IMG/VR virus record: IMGVR_UViG_2744054582_000011
Span: 1 to 18,536 of that record
From: a virus
Taxonomy: Duplodnaviria; Heunggongvirae; Uroviricota; Caudoviricetes
Length of the DNA: 18,536 nt
Reading direction: 5' to 3' (one strand)
Shown: positions 1-7,237 of the stretch, piece after piece
Layout of the letters: each line of letters begins with the position of its first letter
How positions within the stretch are numbered: position 1 is the stretch's first letter
The notes under the pieces: model-generated
What the model was told of the DNA's origin: nothing
What the model saw: the letters and a program-made list of their open reading frames with translations, nothing else
Databases searched by the model: none
Translations under genes and position numbers: made by a program

Positions 1-108
1 TTTTTTTTTTTTAAATCTCTGATCTACTAGAACGTCTTCCACTATCCTCTTCGTCGGAAGCGTAAGATTGTGTATAAGAGACAAACCTCCTTTCATGAAA
101 ATACGCAC
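1..108. other. Probable non-biological adapter-derived sequence (poly-T then Nextera/Tn5 mosaic-end-like adapter with a few errors)
   Basis: Positions 1-13 are poly-T. Positions 51-85 (tcgtcggaagcgtaagattgtgtataagagacaa) match the Illumina Nextera read-1 adapter TCGTCGGCAGCGTCAGATGTGTATAAGAGACAG with 3 substitutions and 1 inserted T. Homology to P2 W stops abruptly at position 109. Confidence 0.6.
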
Positions 109-165
109 AAGGTCAGTGACAGTCAGGCCATCACTGCGATTCATTCCGAGATAACGCGCTGTCAT
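109..165 (-). CDS. W: Baseplate wedge protein gpW, N-terminal 19 codons only (truncated at adapter junction)
   Basis: ATG at 163-165 overlaps the V stop (ATGA). Translation MTARYLGMNRSDGLTVTDL matches the N-terminus of P2 gpW as I recall it, then diverges into adapter-like sequence. Confidence 0.6.
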
Positions 166-797
166 AAAGGACTCCCGGTTGTGCCGCCGCTGTCGCCGGG
201 GTGTTTATGGGTATGCAGTACCTTACCGTTTGATGAGAGTTCACCGCCGGTGTGTTCAATGTTGCCGCGCATCGTCCCGCCCTTCTGCACTTCCAGCGTG
301 CCGGTAATCAGCCTGTTGGTGCAGACCACCTCCGGTGTGTCCAGGGTGATGCGGTTTGACGCTTTCACCATGACCACCGGCACCGTGGCAGTAACAGAAT
401 CAGAAGCCGTCACACTGGCCGTTTTAATTCCGCTTACCGTGAGCGCACTGGTTTCGGGTTCATACTCAATCACCGCCCCGTCAGGGAAACGGATATGCAG
501 GGCATCCGCCGACGCAGACGGTGCGGGATTATCGCCGGAATAAATCCCCGGCAGAACAAACGCCGTGTCGAGTTCACCGCCCACGGACAGAATCAGCACC
601 TGTTCCCCCACGGAAGGTGCCCACCATGTGCGCGAACGACCGGCGCGATGGGTCAGCCACTGCAGCCAGTCGGTACACATGCCGCCGGTCTGCACACGGC
701 AGAGACCGGCGTTAAGGTCGGTTTCGACGATAACGCCGGTGCGAATCATGTTGCGCAGTGCGCGCGCGAGTTCCTGAATATTTGCGAGAGTGTTCAT
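162..797 (-). CDS. V: Baseplate assembly/spike protein gpV
   Basis: 211-aa ORF, ATG at 795-797. Same length and position (after S, before W) as P2 gpV. Confidence 0.85.
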   Translation of the reverse strand: MNTLANIQELARALRNMIRTGVIVETDLNAGLCRVQTGGMCTDWLQWLTHRAGRSRTWWAPSVGEQVLILSVGGELDTAFVLPGIYSGDNPAPSASADALHIRFPDGAVIEYEPETSALTVSGIKTASVTASDSVTATVPVVMVKASNRITLDTPEVVCTNRLITGTLEVQKGGTMRGNIEHTGGELSSNGKVLHTHKHPGDSGGTTGSPL

Positions 798-863
798 AAC
801 GGGAAGGATGCCGCCGGGTCATACCGGCGGCAATGTGACGATGAGGTGTCGGGAATGGCACAA
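798..863 (-). promoter_or_regulatory. Candidate late promoter region upstream of V (PV-like)
   Basis: Intergenic gap between the S stop and V start. An imperfect dyad GGT-N12-ACA on the + strand at 845-862 resembles the TGT-N12-ACA element of Ogr-activated P2 late promoters. Position not verified. Confidence 0.3.
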
Positions 864-1316
864 CTAACGCTCAAGGTGAGCCAGGATAATCTCTTCAATC
901 ATCTGCACATCCTCACCGGTAAAGCCGAGCAGAGGACGCGCAGGATAATCAATTTTCTTACCGTCTTTCCGGGTTTCTTCCGACAGACCAAACTGATGCA
1001 CACTGGCGATTTTCGGTGACTTCCCGCCGTAAAACTCCATTGATGCCTGTTCAGGGCTGGCGCGGATATGCAAAAAACGACTGGTGATAAGTTTCGCAAA
1101 CATTTTTCGCTTAACGCGACCGGTCTTTTTTCTGGCGCTCTGCTGCTGGCGTGGCGCATAGGGTGTGCCGTCCGGAGCTTTCTGTGCCATCACCCGACGC
1201 TGCTGACTCTGCCGCAGGCGTTTCGCCAGTTCGGCACTCAGTCGCCGACGCCCTGACGGTGACAGCGACTCAATAAGTCCGGTCAGCCGGTCTTCAAAAC
1301 GCTTAAACTCATTCAT
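864..1316 (-). CDS. S: Tail completion protein gpS
   Basis: 150-aa ORF, ATG at 1314-1316, overlaps the R stop by 8 nt. Length and order match P2 S. Confidence 0.85.
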   Translation of the reverse strand: MNEFKRFEDRLTGLIESLSPSGRRRLSAELAKRLRQSQQRRVMAQKAPDGTPYAPRQQQSARKKTGRVKRKMFAKLITSRFLHIRASPEQASMEFYGGKSPKIASVHQFGLSEETRKDGKKIDYPARPLLGFTGEDVQMIEEIILAHLER

Positions 1317-1776
1317 CCCACTTGCTCACCAGTTCGCCATTGATATAAAGCTCCATCGGGCGGGTGACCGGCTCTGGCGGCGGAGGTTCCGGGATATTCT
1401 TCACATGCAGTGCGCCGTCAACCTCACTGACCAGCGTGCGCTCGGTCAGCATCAGGCTGATGCTGATATCAAAGCTGCTGTCATTGTTGATGTCTGCATA
1501 AAACGTGAAGCCCTTTTTCTGGCCTTCGTCGGTGGTCATGATGTCGGGCTGATTTTTCCGCAGCCACGCCAGCACCGGCACGATGAGCAGGTCAAAATCA
1601 CCGGTAAAGTCGGTCACAATGACATTGAGCGTGTAACGCTTTTCGAATGACAGCGACGTCGCCAGTGTGGAGGCAATACTCCCGTTATCCACGAATATCC
1701 GCAGCATCTCGGGGCTGGTTTTCAGTACCGTGACGGCATCAGTCAGTGCCCTGCGCAGGCTGTCGGGTTTGAGCAT
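1309..1776 (-). CDS. R: Tail completion protein gpR
   Basis: 155-aa ORF, ATG at 1774-1776. Length and order match P2 R. Confidence 0.85.
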   Translation of the reverse strand: MLKPDSLRRALTDAVTVLKTSPEMLRIFVDNGSIASTLATSLSFEKRYTLNVIVTDFTGDFDLLIVPVLAWLRKNQPDIMTTDEGQKKGFTFYADINNDSSFDISISLMLTERTLVSEVDGALHVKNIPEPPPPEPVTRPMELYINGELVSKWDE

Positions 1777-2029
1777 CGTTTTCGTCCTGACAGTGTTTAA
1801 TCATTTTTACCTGGCTGGCACAGCGTGCCAGCGCGTTCTCAAGCTGCCGGATATCGGCACTTAAATCGCCGTTCGTCTCCGGGTCACTGCCCGGCATCGG
1901 GCAAAGACTCACTTTCGGGCAGGCGTTGGCGACAATCACTGGCGTCAGTGCAGGCGGGGCGCTGGTGCAACCGGCGCACAGCATCAGGCAGGTCAGCGCC
2001 GTACCAGCGGCGAAAATCTTCGTTTTCAT
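1739..2029 (-). CDS. lysC: LysC, Rz1-like outer-membrane lipoprotein spanin, out of frame with the lysB 3' end and running into R
   Basis: ATG at 2027-2029 preceded by GAGG. Product MKTKIFAAGTALTCLMLCAGC has a lipoprotein signal peptide with a lipobox Cys; 96 aa. Embedded architecture as in P2 lysB/lysC. Confidence 0.75.
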   Translation of the reverse strand: MKTKIFAAGTALTCLMLCAGCTSAPPALTPVIVANACPKVSLCPMPGSDPETNGDLSADIRQLENALARCASQVKMIKHCQDENDAQTRQPAQGTD

Positions 2030-2309
2030 TGAGTAACCTCGTGATGGTTTTCTCGCGCTGTGCTTCACGCTTCGCGGCGTTTTCCAGTTCCTGACGCAGT
2101 GCCACCTGCGCCAGCTCGTTTTTGTCTGCCCTGGTGAGGGCAACATGAAGCTGATTTTTCAGCATGGTGATGGTCGTCTGCTGTTCACTGGCGACGCTGT
2201 TCGCCCTGTCCAGCGAGGCGCGCAGGCTGGCATTTTTGTGTTTCACCAGAAACAGACCGGTCACCGCCAGCGATAACAACACGACCAGCACAATCATCAG
2301 CTTTGACAT
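1884..2309 (-). CDS. lysB: LysB, Rz-like inner-membrane spanin
   Basis: 141-aa ORF with an N-terminal TM segment (MSKLMIVLVVLLSLAVTGLFLV) and a coiled-coil-like remainder; ATG at 2307-2309. Confidence 0.8.
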   Translation of the reverse strand: MSKLMIVLVVLLSLAVTGLFLVKHKNASLRASLDRANSVASEQQTTITMLKNQLHVALTRADKNELAQVALRQELENAAKREAQREKTITRLLNENEDFRRWYGADLPDAVRRLHQRPACTDASDCRQRLPESESLPDAGQ

Positions 2310-2722
2310 GGTTCCCGCCCCTCAAGACGCTGACGACAGGCTTTACGTATCAGCCGGAAAAACAGCGACGCCACAAGATAAATCAGCGCGGTAAAAATCC
2401 ACCCGGCAGCGACCAGCGAGATAAACGTCGCCACCATCACTACCAGAGCCGCCGCCCGCCTGCGCCACGGCACCGGCTGCAAAAACAGCGACGTGACAAT
2501 CTTCACGGCCAGCGATTCCGGTGGCAGCTCCCGCCCGTAGCGTTCCAGCACATACTCAGTGGCATACACGCCGACACCACCGGCAACCACACAGATAACC
2601 GTCGCCAGAATCGCCCAGGCGGCGACAAAATTGACGGCCACGCTCTGCGGGTAAATCAGGGACAGTGCCAGCATCAGCGCCAGCGACACATTCAGCATCA
2701 GTGAAAGGGATAATTTCTTCAT
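2297..2722 (-). CDS. lysA: LysA, membrane protein of the lysis cassette (lysis timing)
   Basis: 141-aa ORF with several hydrophobic helices; ATG at 2720-2722; position between K and lysB as in P2. Confidence 0.8.
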   Translation of the reverse strand: MKKLSLSLMLNVSLALMLALSLIYPQSVAVNFVAAWAILATVICVVAGGVGVYATEYVLERYGRELPPESLAVKIVTSLFLQPVPWRRRAAALVVMVATFISLVAAGWIFTALIYLVASLFFRLIRKACRQRLEGREPCQS

Positions 2723-2736
2723 GGTGTTTACTCCGT

Positions 2737-3234
2737 TTAAGCTGGTACACCGCCGGCGGTACGCCAGACGGTGACCAGTTTTTCCAGTGAATGCTCACGC
2801 TGACCGTAACCGGCACCCGGCAGGGACGCCCAGATATTGCGACAGCGTGAAATGGCGCGCTCAATGCGTCCCGCCCGGATGTCATCCAGTGCACCGCGTT
2901 CGCGGATCAACTGAATGGCGAGTCTGTCCTGTGACAACGGACTGAAATCCGGCAGGGCAAGCTGTTTGCGGTAGTGCGGCCAGAACAGGTAAAGCTGCTG
3001 ATAGCGACCGGAGGCCGTGGATTTTTCACCGCGACGGTTAAACACCTTCGCCGGCCGGCCATGCGCGAACGGGTGGTCACTGTAGTCAGTGAAAATTTCC
3101 GGCTTCCCGTCCAGTCCGGTGACTATCACGTCATAGCCCCGGTTTTTCGTCAGCGGATGATTCGCCGTCCCTTCGGACACGGCCAGCATGTCGAGAAAGG
3201 CAGCGATATTCTGATGCGTGTTAATTACCGGCAT
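2737..3234 (-). CDS. K: Endolysin (lysozyme) gpK
   Basis: ORF track starts at a GTG at 3252. I place the start at the in-frame ATG at 3232-3234 (MPVINTHQNIAAFLDMLA...), which gives 165 aa like P2 K and overlaps the Y stop by 1 nt. Confidence 0.85.
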   Translation of the reverse strand: MPVINTHQNIAAFLDMLAVSEGTANHPLTKNRGYDVIVTGLDGKPEIFTDYSDHPFAHGRPAKVFNRRGEKSTASGRYQQLYLFWPHYRKQLALPDFSPLSQDRLAIQLIRERGALDDIRAGRIERAISRCRNIWASLPGAGYGQREHSLEKLVTVWRTAGGVPA

Positions 3235-3515
3235 TACGGTTTCCCCCTGCACTTAAAGCGGCGCTGAATGGCAATCTCAATCACCTGATAACCAGCGATA
3301 CCCAGCATGGAGCCGATGCCGCACACCGCAGGCAGTGACAGGTCAGGAAACTGCACCAGAACAACACCGGCAACCATCGAGACAAAACCACCGAGCAACA
3401 TGCGCCCGATAAACAGACGCGGGGTGATGGGTTCACCACCGGCAAGCACCTTGCCGACAACAATCAGCACCCCAATCATGAAAAGCGACAGGACGCTTTT
3501 TTCTTCTGCTGTCAT
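3234..3515 (-). CDS. Y: Holin gpY
   Basis: 93-aa ORF with TM segments (LSLFMIGVLIVVGKVLAG, LLGGFVSMVAGVVLV); ATG at 3513-3515; immediately upstream of the endolysin. Confidence 0.85.
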   Translation of the reverse strand: MTAEEKSVLSLFMIGVLIVVGKVLAGGEPITPRLFIGRMLLGGFVSMVAGVVLVQFPDLSLPAVCGIGSMLGIAGYQVIEIAIQRRFKCRGKP

Positions 3516-3518
3516 GCG

Positions 3519-3722
3519 TTACTCCCACAGATTGACAGTTTCAGCCACGGGCGCGGTCTGAACGTCGGGCAGTTCGACGGCGGTGCCGTGTGGCAGCACC
3601 GCACCCAGTTCAGCCAGTCCCGGATTTGCGGCGAGCACGGTCTCAACCACGCCCTCAGTGCGCCCGTAATACCGGACACAAATGGCGTCGAGCGTGTCGC
3701 CCTGTAGCGCAAAGGTCTTCAT
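3519..3722 (-). CDS. X: Tail protein gpX (LysM-like)
   Basis: ORF track extends to 3791; start placed at the ATG at 3720-3722 (MKTFALQGDTLDAICVRYYGRTEG...), giving 67 aa and overlapping the L stop (ATGA). Confidence 0.8.
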   Translation of the reverse strand: MKTFALQGDTLDAICVRYYGRTEGVVETVLAANPGLAELGAVLPHGTAVELPDVQTAPVAETVNLWE

Positions 3723-4231
3723 CAGATTTGACTCACGATGCAGCGCGGCTTGTCCTGGATACGCGCCACCGCCCAGCGCATATCCCGCCACAGTTCATCA
3801 ATGGTGCTGTCAATGCTGTCAGCCTTCTTGTCGCCTTTCGCACTGGCATCCACGCCGCGATAACGCTCATAAAGCGACGCGGTCGCCATCGCACACACGG
3901 CGCGCTCGTAGTAAAAAACTTTGATGCTTTCACCGTCGATGTCGTCCGCCGGGACGTCCGCCAGACGCGTAAAACCGGCGGCAATTTTCTGTTCGCGGTA
4001 CTCGTACAGCTCCGCATTCGTCTCCGCCATACCTGACTTGATGGCCTCACGCAGACGGGCGGGGGCGACGGTCTGCTCAAGGCGCATACGTTCCCGGACG
4101 CGCTTCGGGTCGATATCGGGAAAAAAGAACGTGTTTTTAATCACCGGCTCGTCGCCTGCCGGTTGCGGGATGACCACCGTACCCTCACCGGATACAGGAG
4201 CCTCCTTTCGCGGAATAATCAGCGTCATCAT
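3722..4231 (-). CDS. L: Head completion/stabilisation protein gpL
   Basis: ORF track extends to 4291; start placed at ATGATG at 4226-4231 with an upstream GAGG (MMTLIIPRKEAPVSGEG...), giving 169 aa as in P2 L. Confidence 0.85.
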   Translation of the reverse strand: MMTLIIPRKEAPVSGEGTVVIPQPAGDEPVIKNTFFFPDIDPKRVRERMRLEQTVAPARLREAIKSGMAETNAELYEYREQKIAAGFTRLADVPADDIDGESIKVFYYERAVCAMATASLYERYRGVDASAKGDKKADSIDSTIDELWRDMRWAVARIQDKPRCIVSQI

Positions 4232-4330
4232 GACTACCTCTGAAAAGTCGGGCGGTGGACGCCGGTACAGTGTCAGGTGATTCACCCTCACTGACCGGCG
4301 TGCCGCCCTGGCGCGGGGCGCATTCGGTTG

Positions 4331-5074
4331 TTAACTGGCTTTCTTTTTCGGGCGTCCACGTTTTGCCGGTGTCACGCTCCGGGTCTTACGCGGGGTACGG
4401 GTGGCCGCTTTGGGCTGCGGCTCCGGCTTCGGTTTCAGCTCCCGCTCCAGTCGTTCAATCTCTTTTTTGACGCCTGCCTGACAGTCGAGCAGTGTCGCGC
4501 GTTGCAGGTGCGCCAGCGCCCCTGCGGCATCACCAGCGTCACGCAGAAACAGACCGGTGATTTTGTGCAGCTTTGCGCGCACTTCATCAGGCATGTCAGC
4601 CGTGGCGGTCAGTTCAAGGGTCTCCGTCAGCAGGCGGATATCCACAGATTCACCGGCAGCGTGAGCGCGCATGGCCGCGAGTGCGACCTCCTCGGTGAAC
4701 ATGTACGGCGGGGTGCGGCGGTGTTTACCCGGCATGGTCAGACCGTACTTCAGGGCATAACGGGCAATCTCCAGCGCACCGGCAATATCGCCGGTATCCA
4801 GACGCCACAGCATGACCGTCATCAGAATGTCATCCTGTGCACCTTTGCCCTGCTCCAGCACACCGTTCACCCACGGCAACCAGAACGGCAGCAGTTCGCG
4901 CTTTTTCGCGGCCTTAAGCTCTTTTGAATAAATCGCTTTCAGTGTGCGCTGGTCTGCGGCCAGCTTGACCAGCATCTGCTCATAGACAGTTGCATGTCGC
5001 AGCGGGGCGGCTTCCCGCTGCGCGGTCATCGCTGCCGAGACCCGCATCATGTGGCGCTGTGCGGGACTCGTCAT
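4331..5074 (-). CDS. M: Terminase small (endonuclease) subunit gpM
   Basis: 247-aa ORF, ATG at 5072-5074; basic Lys/Arg-rich C-terminus; order N-M-L as in P2. Confidence 0.85.
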   Translation of the reverse strand: MTSPAQRHMMRVSAAMTAQREAAPLRHATVYEQMLVKLAADQRTLKAIYSKELKAAKKRELLPFWLPWVNGVLEQGKGAQDDILMTVMLWRLDTGDIAGALEIARYALKYGLTMPGKHRRTPPYMFTEEVALAAMRAHAAGESVDIRLLTETLELTATADMPDEVRAKLHKITGLFLRDAGDAAGALAHLQRATLLDCQAGVKKEIERLERELKPKPEPQPKAATRTPRKTRSVTPAKRGRPKKKAS

Positions 5075-5077
5075 CGG

Positions 5078-6151
5078 TTACGCTCCCGGCTCTGCGGTCG
5101 CCTTAGCCGGTGTGGAGAAATCACCGACCTTGATTTTTTCCACCAGACAACCGGCGGCGTAGTCTTCCACCACGTAATCAATGTTCATTGACTCGTAGTT
5201 CTCCACGCGGTCGAGTTTCGGGTTTTCCACAATCACGCGGCGATGGCTGTCATCCATGTAGTAGATGGACAGGTTTTCCAGCTTCGTGATGAGCATCGCA
5301 TCCGCCGGGAAGTACGGGACGCGTACCGCCGGCAGGTTACCGATGCGTTTCTGGCTGATGATGACGTCAGCGGCCAGCATTTCGCTGTTGTCCTGCTCCT
5401 TGTTAACGATGGGGAAATACTTGTCCGCCAGTAGCTGACGCCCCACAATCACCACAAGGTCAGGGTCTTCCTGATACCACGGTTCAATCAGGTTGTTGGT
5501 CGCATCCATCACCAGTGCGTCGAGGCTTACATAATCACCGCCCTTACCCACGCGGATAACCTCAGAGGTGGTGTGCCCTTCCTCGTCAGTGACCTTGCTC
5601 ATCACGCGCGCCGGGGCTTCATTGCGGTATTTCTGCAGCCAGCCGACCGCCACATCCTGCAGCATCGGATTGCTGCTGCGGTCAGAGGTTTCGGCACGCC
5701 TCACGCCGTTAAAACCGGCCATGATTAAATCAAGGGACTGGCGTTTGATAATGGCGTTACGGACACGGAGCTGGAAATCCTGATAACGCGCCCACAGGTC
5801 CAGCGTTTTGTAGCGGATATAAAAATCGAAGTTAATCTGGTCGCATTCGTACTTGTTTGACGCCAGCTTCGAGAAGTCCTTCGGCTGACGCTCGGTGCCA
5901 CCGGCGGTGTCGGTGGTGCTGGCGATGGAGCCGGTGACACCGATGCCAATTTTTTCCCCTTTCATTTCGCTGACCGGCACAATGTTGATGCGGGTCAGAA
6001 AGTCAGAGGACTCCTGCATGGTGTTCATCAGGGTCTGGGTGACCGACGGTTCAACGGTGAATTTTTTCGACACATCACCGGCGTCGATGCCGTTCAGTTC
6101 GGCAACACGGGACAGGTAGGCATTAAATTTAAAGCGGGTTTCCTGGCGCAT
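5078..6151 (-). CDS. N: Major capsid protein gpN
   Basis: 357-aa ORF, ATG at 6149-6151; matches P2 N in length and N-terminus (MRQETRFKFNAYLSRVAELNGID...). Confidence 0.9.
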   Translation of the reverse strand: MRQETRFKFNAYLSRVAELNGIDAGDVSKKFTVEPSVTQTLMNTMQESSDFLTRINIVPVSEMKGEKIGIGVTGSIASTTDTAGGTERQPKDFSKLASNKYECDQINFDFYIRYKTLDLWARYQDFQLRVRNAIIKRQSLDLIMAGFNGVRRAETSDRSSNPMLQDVAVGWLQKYRNEAPARVMSKVTDEEGHTTSEVIRVGKGGDYVSLDALVMDATNNLIEPWYQEDPDLVVIVGRQLLADKYFPIVNKEQDNSEMLAADVIISQKRIGNLPAVRVPYFPADAMLITKLENLSIYYMDDSHRRVIVENPKLDRVENYESMNIDYVVEDYAAGCLVEKIKVGDFSTPAKATAEPGA

Positions 6152-6209
6152 AGTTTTTCCTGAAATTAAGGGTTAATCGTGAAGGTTTTCCCGGACTGAC
6201 TGACGCCGG

Positions 6210-7064
6210 TCAGCAGTTCGTCATCAGGGCGTCACCGCCACCACCGGTGGCCTTGCTGCGGCGCTGCTGGGTCAGACTTTCGGTGTGGTCGAGACTGTTT
6301 TTCAGGCGGGTGAATGCCTGGCTGGTTTCATCCGCCCTGTCAGTCACATCCTGCTTAAGTGCGGAAAAAGCGGTTTCCATCTCAGCGAGGCGCTGCTCAG
6401 TGGCGCTCAGTTTTTCCTGCACATGTTCAGCAACAGCGGTCACCGCTTCATGCACGTCATTCAGACGGGCGTCATCGCTGGCCTGTTTGCGGCCAAAAAT
6501 GGACTTCACCTTTTCGGTCAGGGCGGTGAACACGGTTTCAGGCAGGTCTTCAAATTCCAGCTCAACGGGCGTTGCCACTGAAATCAGGTTTTCAGGGCTT
6601 AATTTGAAGCGGTTCAGGGGGTTGTGTTTTGCCGTGCGGCAGAATTCCAGGTATTCCGTGCCGAGGCTTGCCGGGTCATCGGTGACGGCCAGACCCACCA
6701 GATAACATTTGCCTGTATTGGCAAAGTTCGGCTGAATTTCCATTGAGGTATAGACCTTCTGCGCGGCCTTGTTCATCGCGATAAGGTCATCGGTCGGGGT
6801 GATTTTCGCAAACAGCGCCCATTTGCCTTTCAGCGCCGAATCATCGTCAATCTTTTCGGCCTTCAGTTCGGCCACATCGCCATAACGTTTAAAAATACCG
6901 TCAGGCAGGATGCCGCGCAGATGTTCCAGGTTAATGCGGCAACCATAGACACGCGGGTCAAAGGTTTCGGCCATTTCCTGAATATCCTGCGCACTGATGA
7001 CACGCCCGTCACAGGTGTCACCCTCAACGCCGATACGAAAGAATTTTGAGACTTTTTTTGCCAT
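6210..7064 (-). CDS. O: Capsid scaffolding protein gpO
   Basis: ORF track extends to 7130; start placed at the ATG at 7062-7064 (MAKKVSKFFRIGVEGDTCDGR...), giving 284 aa as in P2 O. Confidence 0.85.
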   Translation of the reverse strand: MAKKVSKFFRIGVEGDTCDGRVISAQDIQEMAETFDPRVYGCRINLEHLRGILPDGIFKRYGDVAELKAEKIDDDSALKGKWALFAKITPTDDLIAMNKAAQKVYTSMEIQPNFANTGKCYLVGLAVTDDPASLGTEYLEFCRTAKHNPLNRFKLSPENLISVATPVELEFEDLPETVFTALTEKVKSIFGRKQASDDARLNDVHEAVTAVAEHVQEKLSATEQRLAEMETAFSALKQDVTDRADETSQAFTRLKNSLDHTESLTQQRRSKATGGGGDALMTNC

Positions 7065-7237
7065 TGTCAGGAGTCCTGAATAGTGATTAGAGGAGTCACA
7101 TGTCGGCATCAGTTTCCCGACGATGCGCATCCTCCGCCATCAGTCCCGGATGGCTTATCACTGACACAACAGCACCTTAGCGAATCGCGGGGCGCGACTC
7201 AGTAGCCTTGCCGTGTATTCATCACGGCGAGGTATTC
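7065..7237. promoter_or_regulatory. Divergent late promoter region (PO leftward, PP rightward)
   Basis: Intergenic region between divergent O and P, as in P2 where Ogr-dependent late promoters sit here. Imperfect dyad TGG-N12-ACA at 7151-7168 is a candidate activator box about 70 bp upstream of the P ATG. Confidence 0.45.

Follow-up and report, generated by a model that had tools for sequence, protein, structure and literature searches.

The window analysed here, a stretch of 18,536 nt holding a P2-like provirus of E. coli, carries near its start only the first 19 codons of the baseplate gene W. The question raised by this locus is whether W is broken in the genome or only in the assembly. 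In a sequence-only reading of the window, the truncation was attributed most probably to an untrimmed-adapter or chimeric contig end, and it was advised not to regard W as a disrupted baseplate gene or the site of a transposon insertion. The first part of that explanation stood, adapter sequence being present at a true contig end, but the second did not, W being split by the insertion sequence ISEc12. With high confidence, the contig end is interpreted as three layers: an insertion of ISEc12, an assembly break in this multicopy repeat and an untrimmed, error-rich adapter tip.

Source record and layout of the contig start

Whether the source contig terminates at this point had been left to be checked. 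Base 1 of the window was found to be base 1 of NCBI contig LQWX02000003.1 (assembly GCA_001605825.2), which makes it a true contig end. When reverse-complemented, the locus retrieved from this contig (L014) is exactly window positions 385-18536, and record coordinates are window coordinates. The features identified at the contig start are listed in Table 1, together with two of the ISEc12 copies used for comparison. The run of T at the start, previously counted as 13, comprises 12 nucleotides. On the minus strand, W starts with an ATG at 165-163, which the stop codon of V overlaps. Gene V is intact, and the other genes of the window align with P2-like prophages of complete genomes.

Table 1. 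Features at the start of contig LQWX02000003.1 (window coordinates) and ISEc12 copies in gene J of related prophages (locus coordinates).
Feature	Position	Strand	Basis
T12 run	1-12		Sequence
P5 slot, 29-nt P5 expected, badly degraded, content AAATCTCTGATCTACTAGAACGTCTTCCAC	13-42		Position only
Nextera i5 index N503/S503, TATCCTCT, exact	43-50		Catalogue match
Illumina Nextera read-1 primer site TCGTCGGCAGCGTC, two C-to-A substitutions	51-64		Alignment
Tn5 mosaic end AGATGTGTATAAGAGACAG, one inserted T, final G read as A	65-84		Alignment
ISEc12 (IS21 family) terminal 23 nt, istA-proximal inverted repeat, ACCTCCTTTCATGAAAATACGCA	85-107	Minus	Match to ISEc12 ends
W 5' fragment (baseplate wedge, gp25-like), codons 1-19 plus 1 nt	108-165	Minus	Identity to intact W
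V, intact baseplate spike gene, 211 aa	162-797	Minus	Pfam Phage_base_V and Phage_spike; homologue annotation
ISEc12 in J	L004, 1070-3650; L005, 1072-3650	Same orientation as the insertion in W	E. coli QEC11-421 and G6/7; duplications GTGATAAT and GGTGTC

ISEc12 terminus next to W

Positions 87-107 are exactly the last 21 nt of ISEc12, as found at the ends of four reference copies (L002, L003, L004 and L005). Over the full segment 85-107, which reads TGCGTATTTTCATGAAAGGAG[G]T on the minus strand, 22 of 23 nucleotides match the end of the element. The single difference lies at position 86, where the window has C and both ISEc12 and the separately deposited contig described below have T; because that contig carries the T of ISEc12, the C was taken to be a read error. 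The terminal CA of ISEc12 (106-107) directly abuts W nucleotide 58 (position 108). Because the break falls at the last base of the element, the junction is not considered a random chimera.

A 36-nt query covering positions 80-115 was found at 5,295 places in 1,804 of the 5,426 complete E. coli genomes, with a median of three per genome. The top matches correspond to the end of an annotated 'IS21-like element ISEc12', beside istA. The reference copies measure 2579-2581 bp, start with TGCGTATTACCG and finish with CTCCTTTCATGAAAATACGCA, also written GAGTGATCTCCTTTCATGAAAATACGCA, and target duplications of 6-8 bp were seen around them. Two genes are carried by the element, with rve/Mu-transposase and IstB_IS21 domains: istA for the DDE transposase and istB for a helper ATPase. 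Since the istA-proximal end is the one that faces W, istA and istB would lie off the left end of the window, encoded on the minus strand and oriented the same way as W. The remainder of ISEc12 lies off the contig, and the body of the element is absent from the window.

Three other interpretations of this region were tried and rejected. A reading of 85-108 as W corrupted by sequencing errors, with 12 of its 24 positions shared with intact W, was abandoned when the exact ISEc12 terminus was found by BLAST. An extension of the W match to position 101, also returned by BLAST, reflects a chance resemblance (6/8) between the tip of ISEc12 and W. Finally, a target consensus drawn from the flanks CCAGGTCAG and CAGGTCACC of some other ISEc12 copies and compared with CAAGGTCAG at this site was discarded, as the flanks of the two J insertions in Table 1 differ and the flanks compared had been selected by the BLAST ranking.

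Disruption of W in a separate deposit

Two loci with an intact 115-aa W, that of E. coli S14 (L001) and that of a relative carrying the same LysB (L015), were compared with the window. The W sequence of the window is identical to both down to position 108; further to the left, the alignment with L001 turns to noise. The 19 matching codons and the start at 163-165 given earlier were thus correct, but homology does not end at 109, as the identity reaches 108. The domain PF04965 (GPW_gp25) is present in intact relatives. In the relative with the same LysB, the empty site reads GACCTTG followed by AGCATATC.

Using the LysB protein of the window, contig JAGTFE010000006.1 (L016) was retrieved from the separately deposited assembly GCA_050021235.1. 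This contig shows 0 mismatches to window positions 108-8309 (8,202 nt). At its positions 8202 and 8203, GACCTTG is followed by TGCGTATTTTCATGAAAGGAGATCACTC, resulting in the identical junction of W to TGCGTATTTTCATG. Past the junction, the next 731 nt of the contig match ISEc12 without a mismatch and include the istA N-terminus. Fifteen further contigs were collapsed with it because their neighbouring genes are mostly the same. The second contig could represent the same clone or strain, resequenced; it excludes a one-off library chimera, and independent transposition is not thereby shown. The earlier advice against a disrupted gene or transposon insertion is contradicted by this junction and by the ISEc12 terminus at 85-107. 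A match of 1-108 to a genuine genomic locus, named at the time as evidence against an artefact, was obtained for 85-107.

From the sequence of both deposits, the insertion of ISEc12 after W nucleotide 58, truncating gpW after codon 19, is genuine. The reading frame that is left consists of 19 gpW residues followed by IS-derived residues, 36 aa in total in the second contig. Only 19 of the 115 W codons precede ISEc12, and the window holds no full-length GPW_gp25 open reading frame.

Both junctions were also sought by exact-pattern scans of viral, metagenome and GTDB-representative contigs, which yielded no match. Neither the second junction nor its target-site duplication (5-8 bp for ISEc12) was found in these contigs. 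Similarly, a synthetic junction query (150 nt of the ISEc12 end and 150 nt of W) retrieved no complete E. coli genome with the W junction.

Artefact or insertion in part of the culture

It is very unlikely that 1-108 is technical in origin throughout and that the real genome has an intact W. Such an origin would agree with the presence of adapter at a true contig end, and with the sequencing errors in 1-107, because of which this stretch probably rests on very few reads. However, a random chimera would not break where the exact terminus of ISEc12 meets W, and the same junction with 731 nt of ISEc12 in a separate deposit contradicts it. Moreover, an intact W would leave the stop of the contig unexplained.

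Just as improbable is a real insertion confined to part of the culture, following a recent hop of ISEc12, with W intact in the majority of cells. Insertion sequences do move during culture, but a majority intact allele would let the contig run on into W and J, and the contig breaks instead. Another assembly shares the junction, as up to 15 more contigs probably do, which indicates that the insertion is inherited and fixed.

Under the preferred reading, a fixed insertion, the following course of events is proposed. ISEc12 (approximately 2.58 kb) transposed into W of a P2-like prophage in the sequenced E. coli strain, in the same orientation as W. The short-read contig stops 23 nt into ISEc12, presumably because the element is multicopy. 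In a short Nextera fragment, Tn5 may have cut 23 nt inside the ISEc12 end, and read 2 would have continued through the mosaic end, the read-1 site, the i5 index N503 and P5 into oligo-T. This untrimmed tail would have been the only unambiguous extension, probably aided by the miscall at position 86, giving rise to bases 1-84. As a consequence of the insertion, the baseplate wedge protein would be lost, with probable polarity on the downstream late genes J-I-H-G, and the prophage would be unable to build tails.

Library sequence at the contig tip

Positions 51-84 read TCGTCGGAAGCGTAAGATTGTGTATAAGAGACAA, where TCGTCGGCAGCGTCAGATGTGTATAAGAGACAG is expected (TCGTCGGCAGCGTC joined to AGATGTGTATAAGAGACAG). 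The two differ by exactly three substitutions and one inserted T, and the alignment was equalled by 0 of 2000 shuffles. The adapter-like sequence noticed earlier at the contig start, with the same number of differences, was confirmed in this way; a Nextera copy is indeed present, but it ends at 84 and not, as proposed, at 85. The match to the read-1 site (12 of 14 positions) lies directly 5' of the mosaic end, and the 19-nt mosaic end in turn adjoins the insert. Directly 5' of the read-1 site, the sequence at 43-50 is that of index 503, the best among 18 i5 indices tried. Primer 503 is printed as AATGATACGGCGACCACCGAGATCTACAC-TATCCTCT-TCGTCGGCAGCGTC (PMC8225968).

Further to the left, P5 (AATGATACGGCGACCACCGAGATCTACAC) was aligned with 13-42, anchored at the right, with 12 of 29 positions identical (p about 0.04); 143 of 2000 shuffles aligned equally well. 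A panel of Illumina oligonucleotides, compared with 13-42 in both orientations, gave nothing significant. The segment bears a faint similarity to P7 in reverse complement (13/18, not significant) and is approximately 60% different from P5. It is probably a mixed signal from the final read cycles. The T run at 1-12 is presumably the reverse complement of poly-A, as produced when a read passes the end of P5 and enters the flow-cell primer's oligo-T linker.

Deviations from the expected sequence were counted per segment. None were found from position 108 onward. Segment 85-107 (23 nt) has 1, segment 51-84 (34 nt) has 4 and segment 43-50 (8 nt) has none; at 13-42, approximately 60% deviates. Errors climb from right to left, the direction that a read 2 would take; the increase is not strictly monotonic, the index at 43-50 being the exception. 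For bases 1-84, no alignment in E. coli or phage records was obtained: when 1-900 was compared by megablast with phages and complete E. coli genomes, alignments began only at 101. Bases 1-84 are Illumina Nextera library sequence and sit at a true contig end.

A natural Tn5/IS50 end inserted beside W, suggested by the resemblance of 65-84 to the 19-bp Tn5 end, is extremely unlikely and, as had been argued before, was ruled out because the synthetic mosaic end is flanked by the Illumina-only TCGTCGGCAGCGTC and an exact catalogue index N503, with a T run further out, no IS50 and, for 1-84, no match in E. coli or phage records.

Remainder of the provirus and implications

At the other side, the window ends with the stop codon of the integrase gene (18534-18536), and LQWX02000003.1 runs on to 47,932 bp. 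Past the window end, host genes are found that encode a pflA-like radical SAM protein, an MFS transporter and an isochorismatase. The distance between this integrase and pflA in strain M10 is 31 bp. Because the source contig continues with host genes, the right end of the window is considered a provirus-boundary trim and not a contig end.

A 311-aa open reading frame (10385-11320, minus strand) occupies the variable cargo slot between the portal gene Q and the replication gene A. Neither this frame nor the neighbouring 109-aa frame (11376-11705, plus strand) gave a Pfam or PADLOC match. The exact 311-aa sequence is known from LQWX02000003.1 only, and DUF4935 is the name given to a member of its cluster in a Peduovirus P2 record. 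Between cox and a B-like gene of the early operon, a 154-aa open reading frame (16214-16678, minus strand) is present that has no Pfam domain on record and gave no PADLOC match.

The P2-like provirus is very probably tail-defective. Its contig holds only the half from V to int, and the remainder of W together with J-I-H-G lies beyond ISEc12 on another contig. In the public E. coli contig LQWX02000003.1, bases 1-84 represent contaminating adapter that ought to be removed. For the truncated W, the appropriate annotation is W::ISEc12, and the gene should not be set aside as a product of assembly. Error-rich adapter copies can escape adapter screens that rely on exact matches, and a short unexplained spacer between adapter and gene can carry the decisive biological signal.

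Comparison with known systems

In P2, gpW is a wedge protein resembling T4 gp25 (Pfam GPW_gp25). The first 19 codons of the copy described here are identical to those of the 115-aa W of close relatives, but as only these 19 of 115 codons precede ISEc12, no functional GPW_gp25 domain can arise from it.

Contamination of contig ends by leftover adapter is well known. As in untrimmed Nextera read-through in public drafts, the order from contig base 1 is T run, P5 slot, i5 index, read-1 site, mosaic end and insert. Unlike the usual case, the present copy is error-rich, with approximately 12% deviation in the adapter and approximately 60% in P5. This richness in errors is probably the reason why the copy was missed by adapter screening.

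ISEc12 splits tssM in clade C of ST131, with a 5-bp duplication (PMC10711316). Both cases share the element, the splitting of an open reading frame and the breaking of short-read contigs at the insertion sequence; in the present case, however, the target is W of a prophage, and a different contig holds the second junction. Closer still, ISEc12 splits J of P2-like prophages in three complete genomes (E. coli QEC11-421, G6/7 and G8), at two sites. The insertion sequence, the type of prophage, the late operon and the orientation are the same as for the insertion in W. The differences are that J and not W was hit, at other sites, and that both junctions are visible in these complete genomes, with 6-8 bp duplications. 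Another ISEc12 end adjoins an ogr/Delta gene (H53).

With the insertion in W and the two sites in J, three ISEc12 sites are found in the P2-like baseplate module. That ISEc12 repeatedly strikes W and J of this module in P2-like prophages, each time in the same orientation, is unlikely; if true, it would point to a preference for such targets or to selection for prophages that lack tails and are non-infectious but retain their immunity, lysis and cargo genes. Disruption of genes by ISEc12 is already known in kind, and the insertion in W represents a further case of it and no new kind of element.
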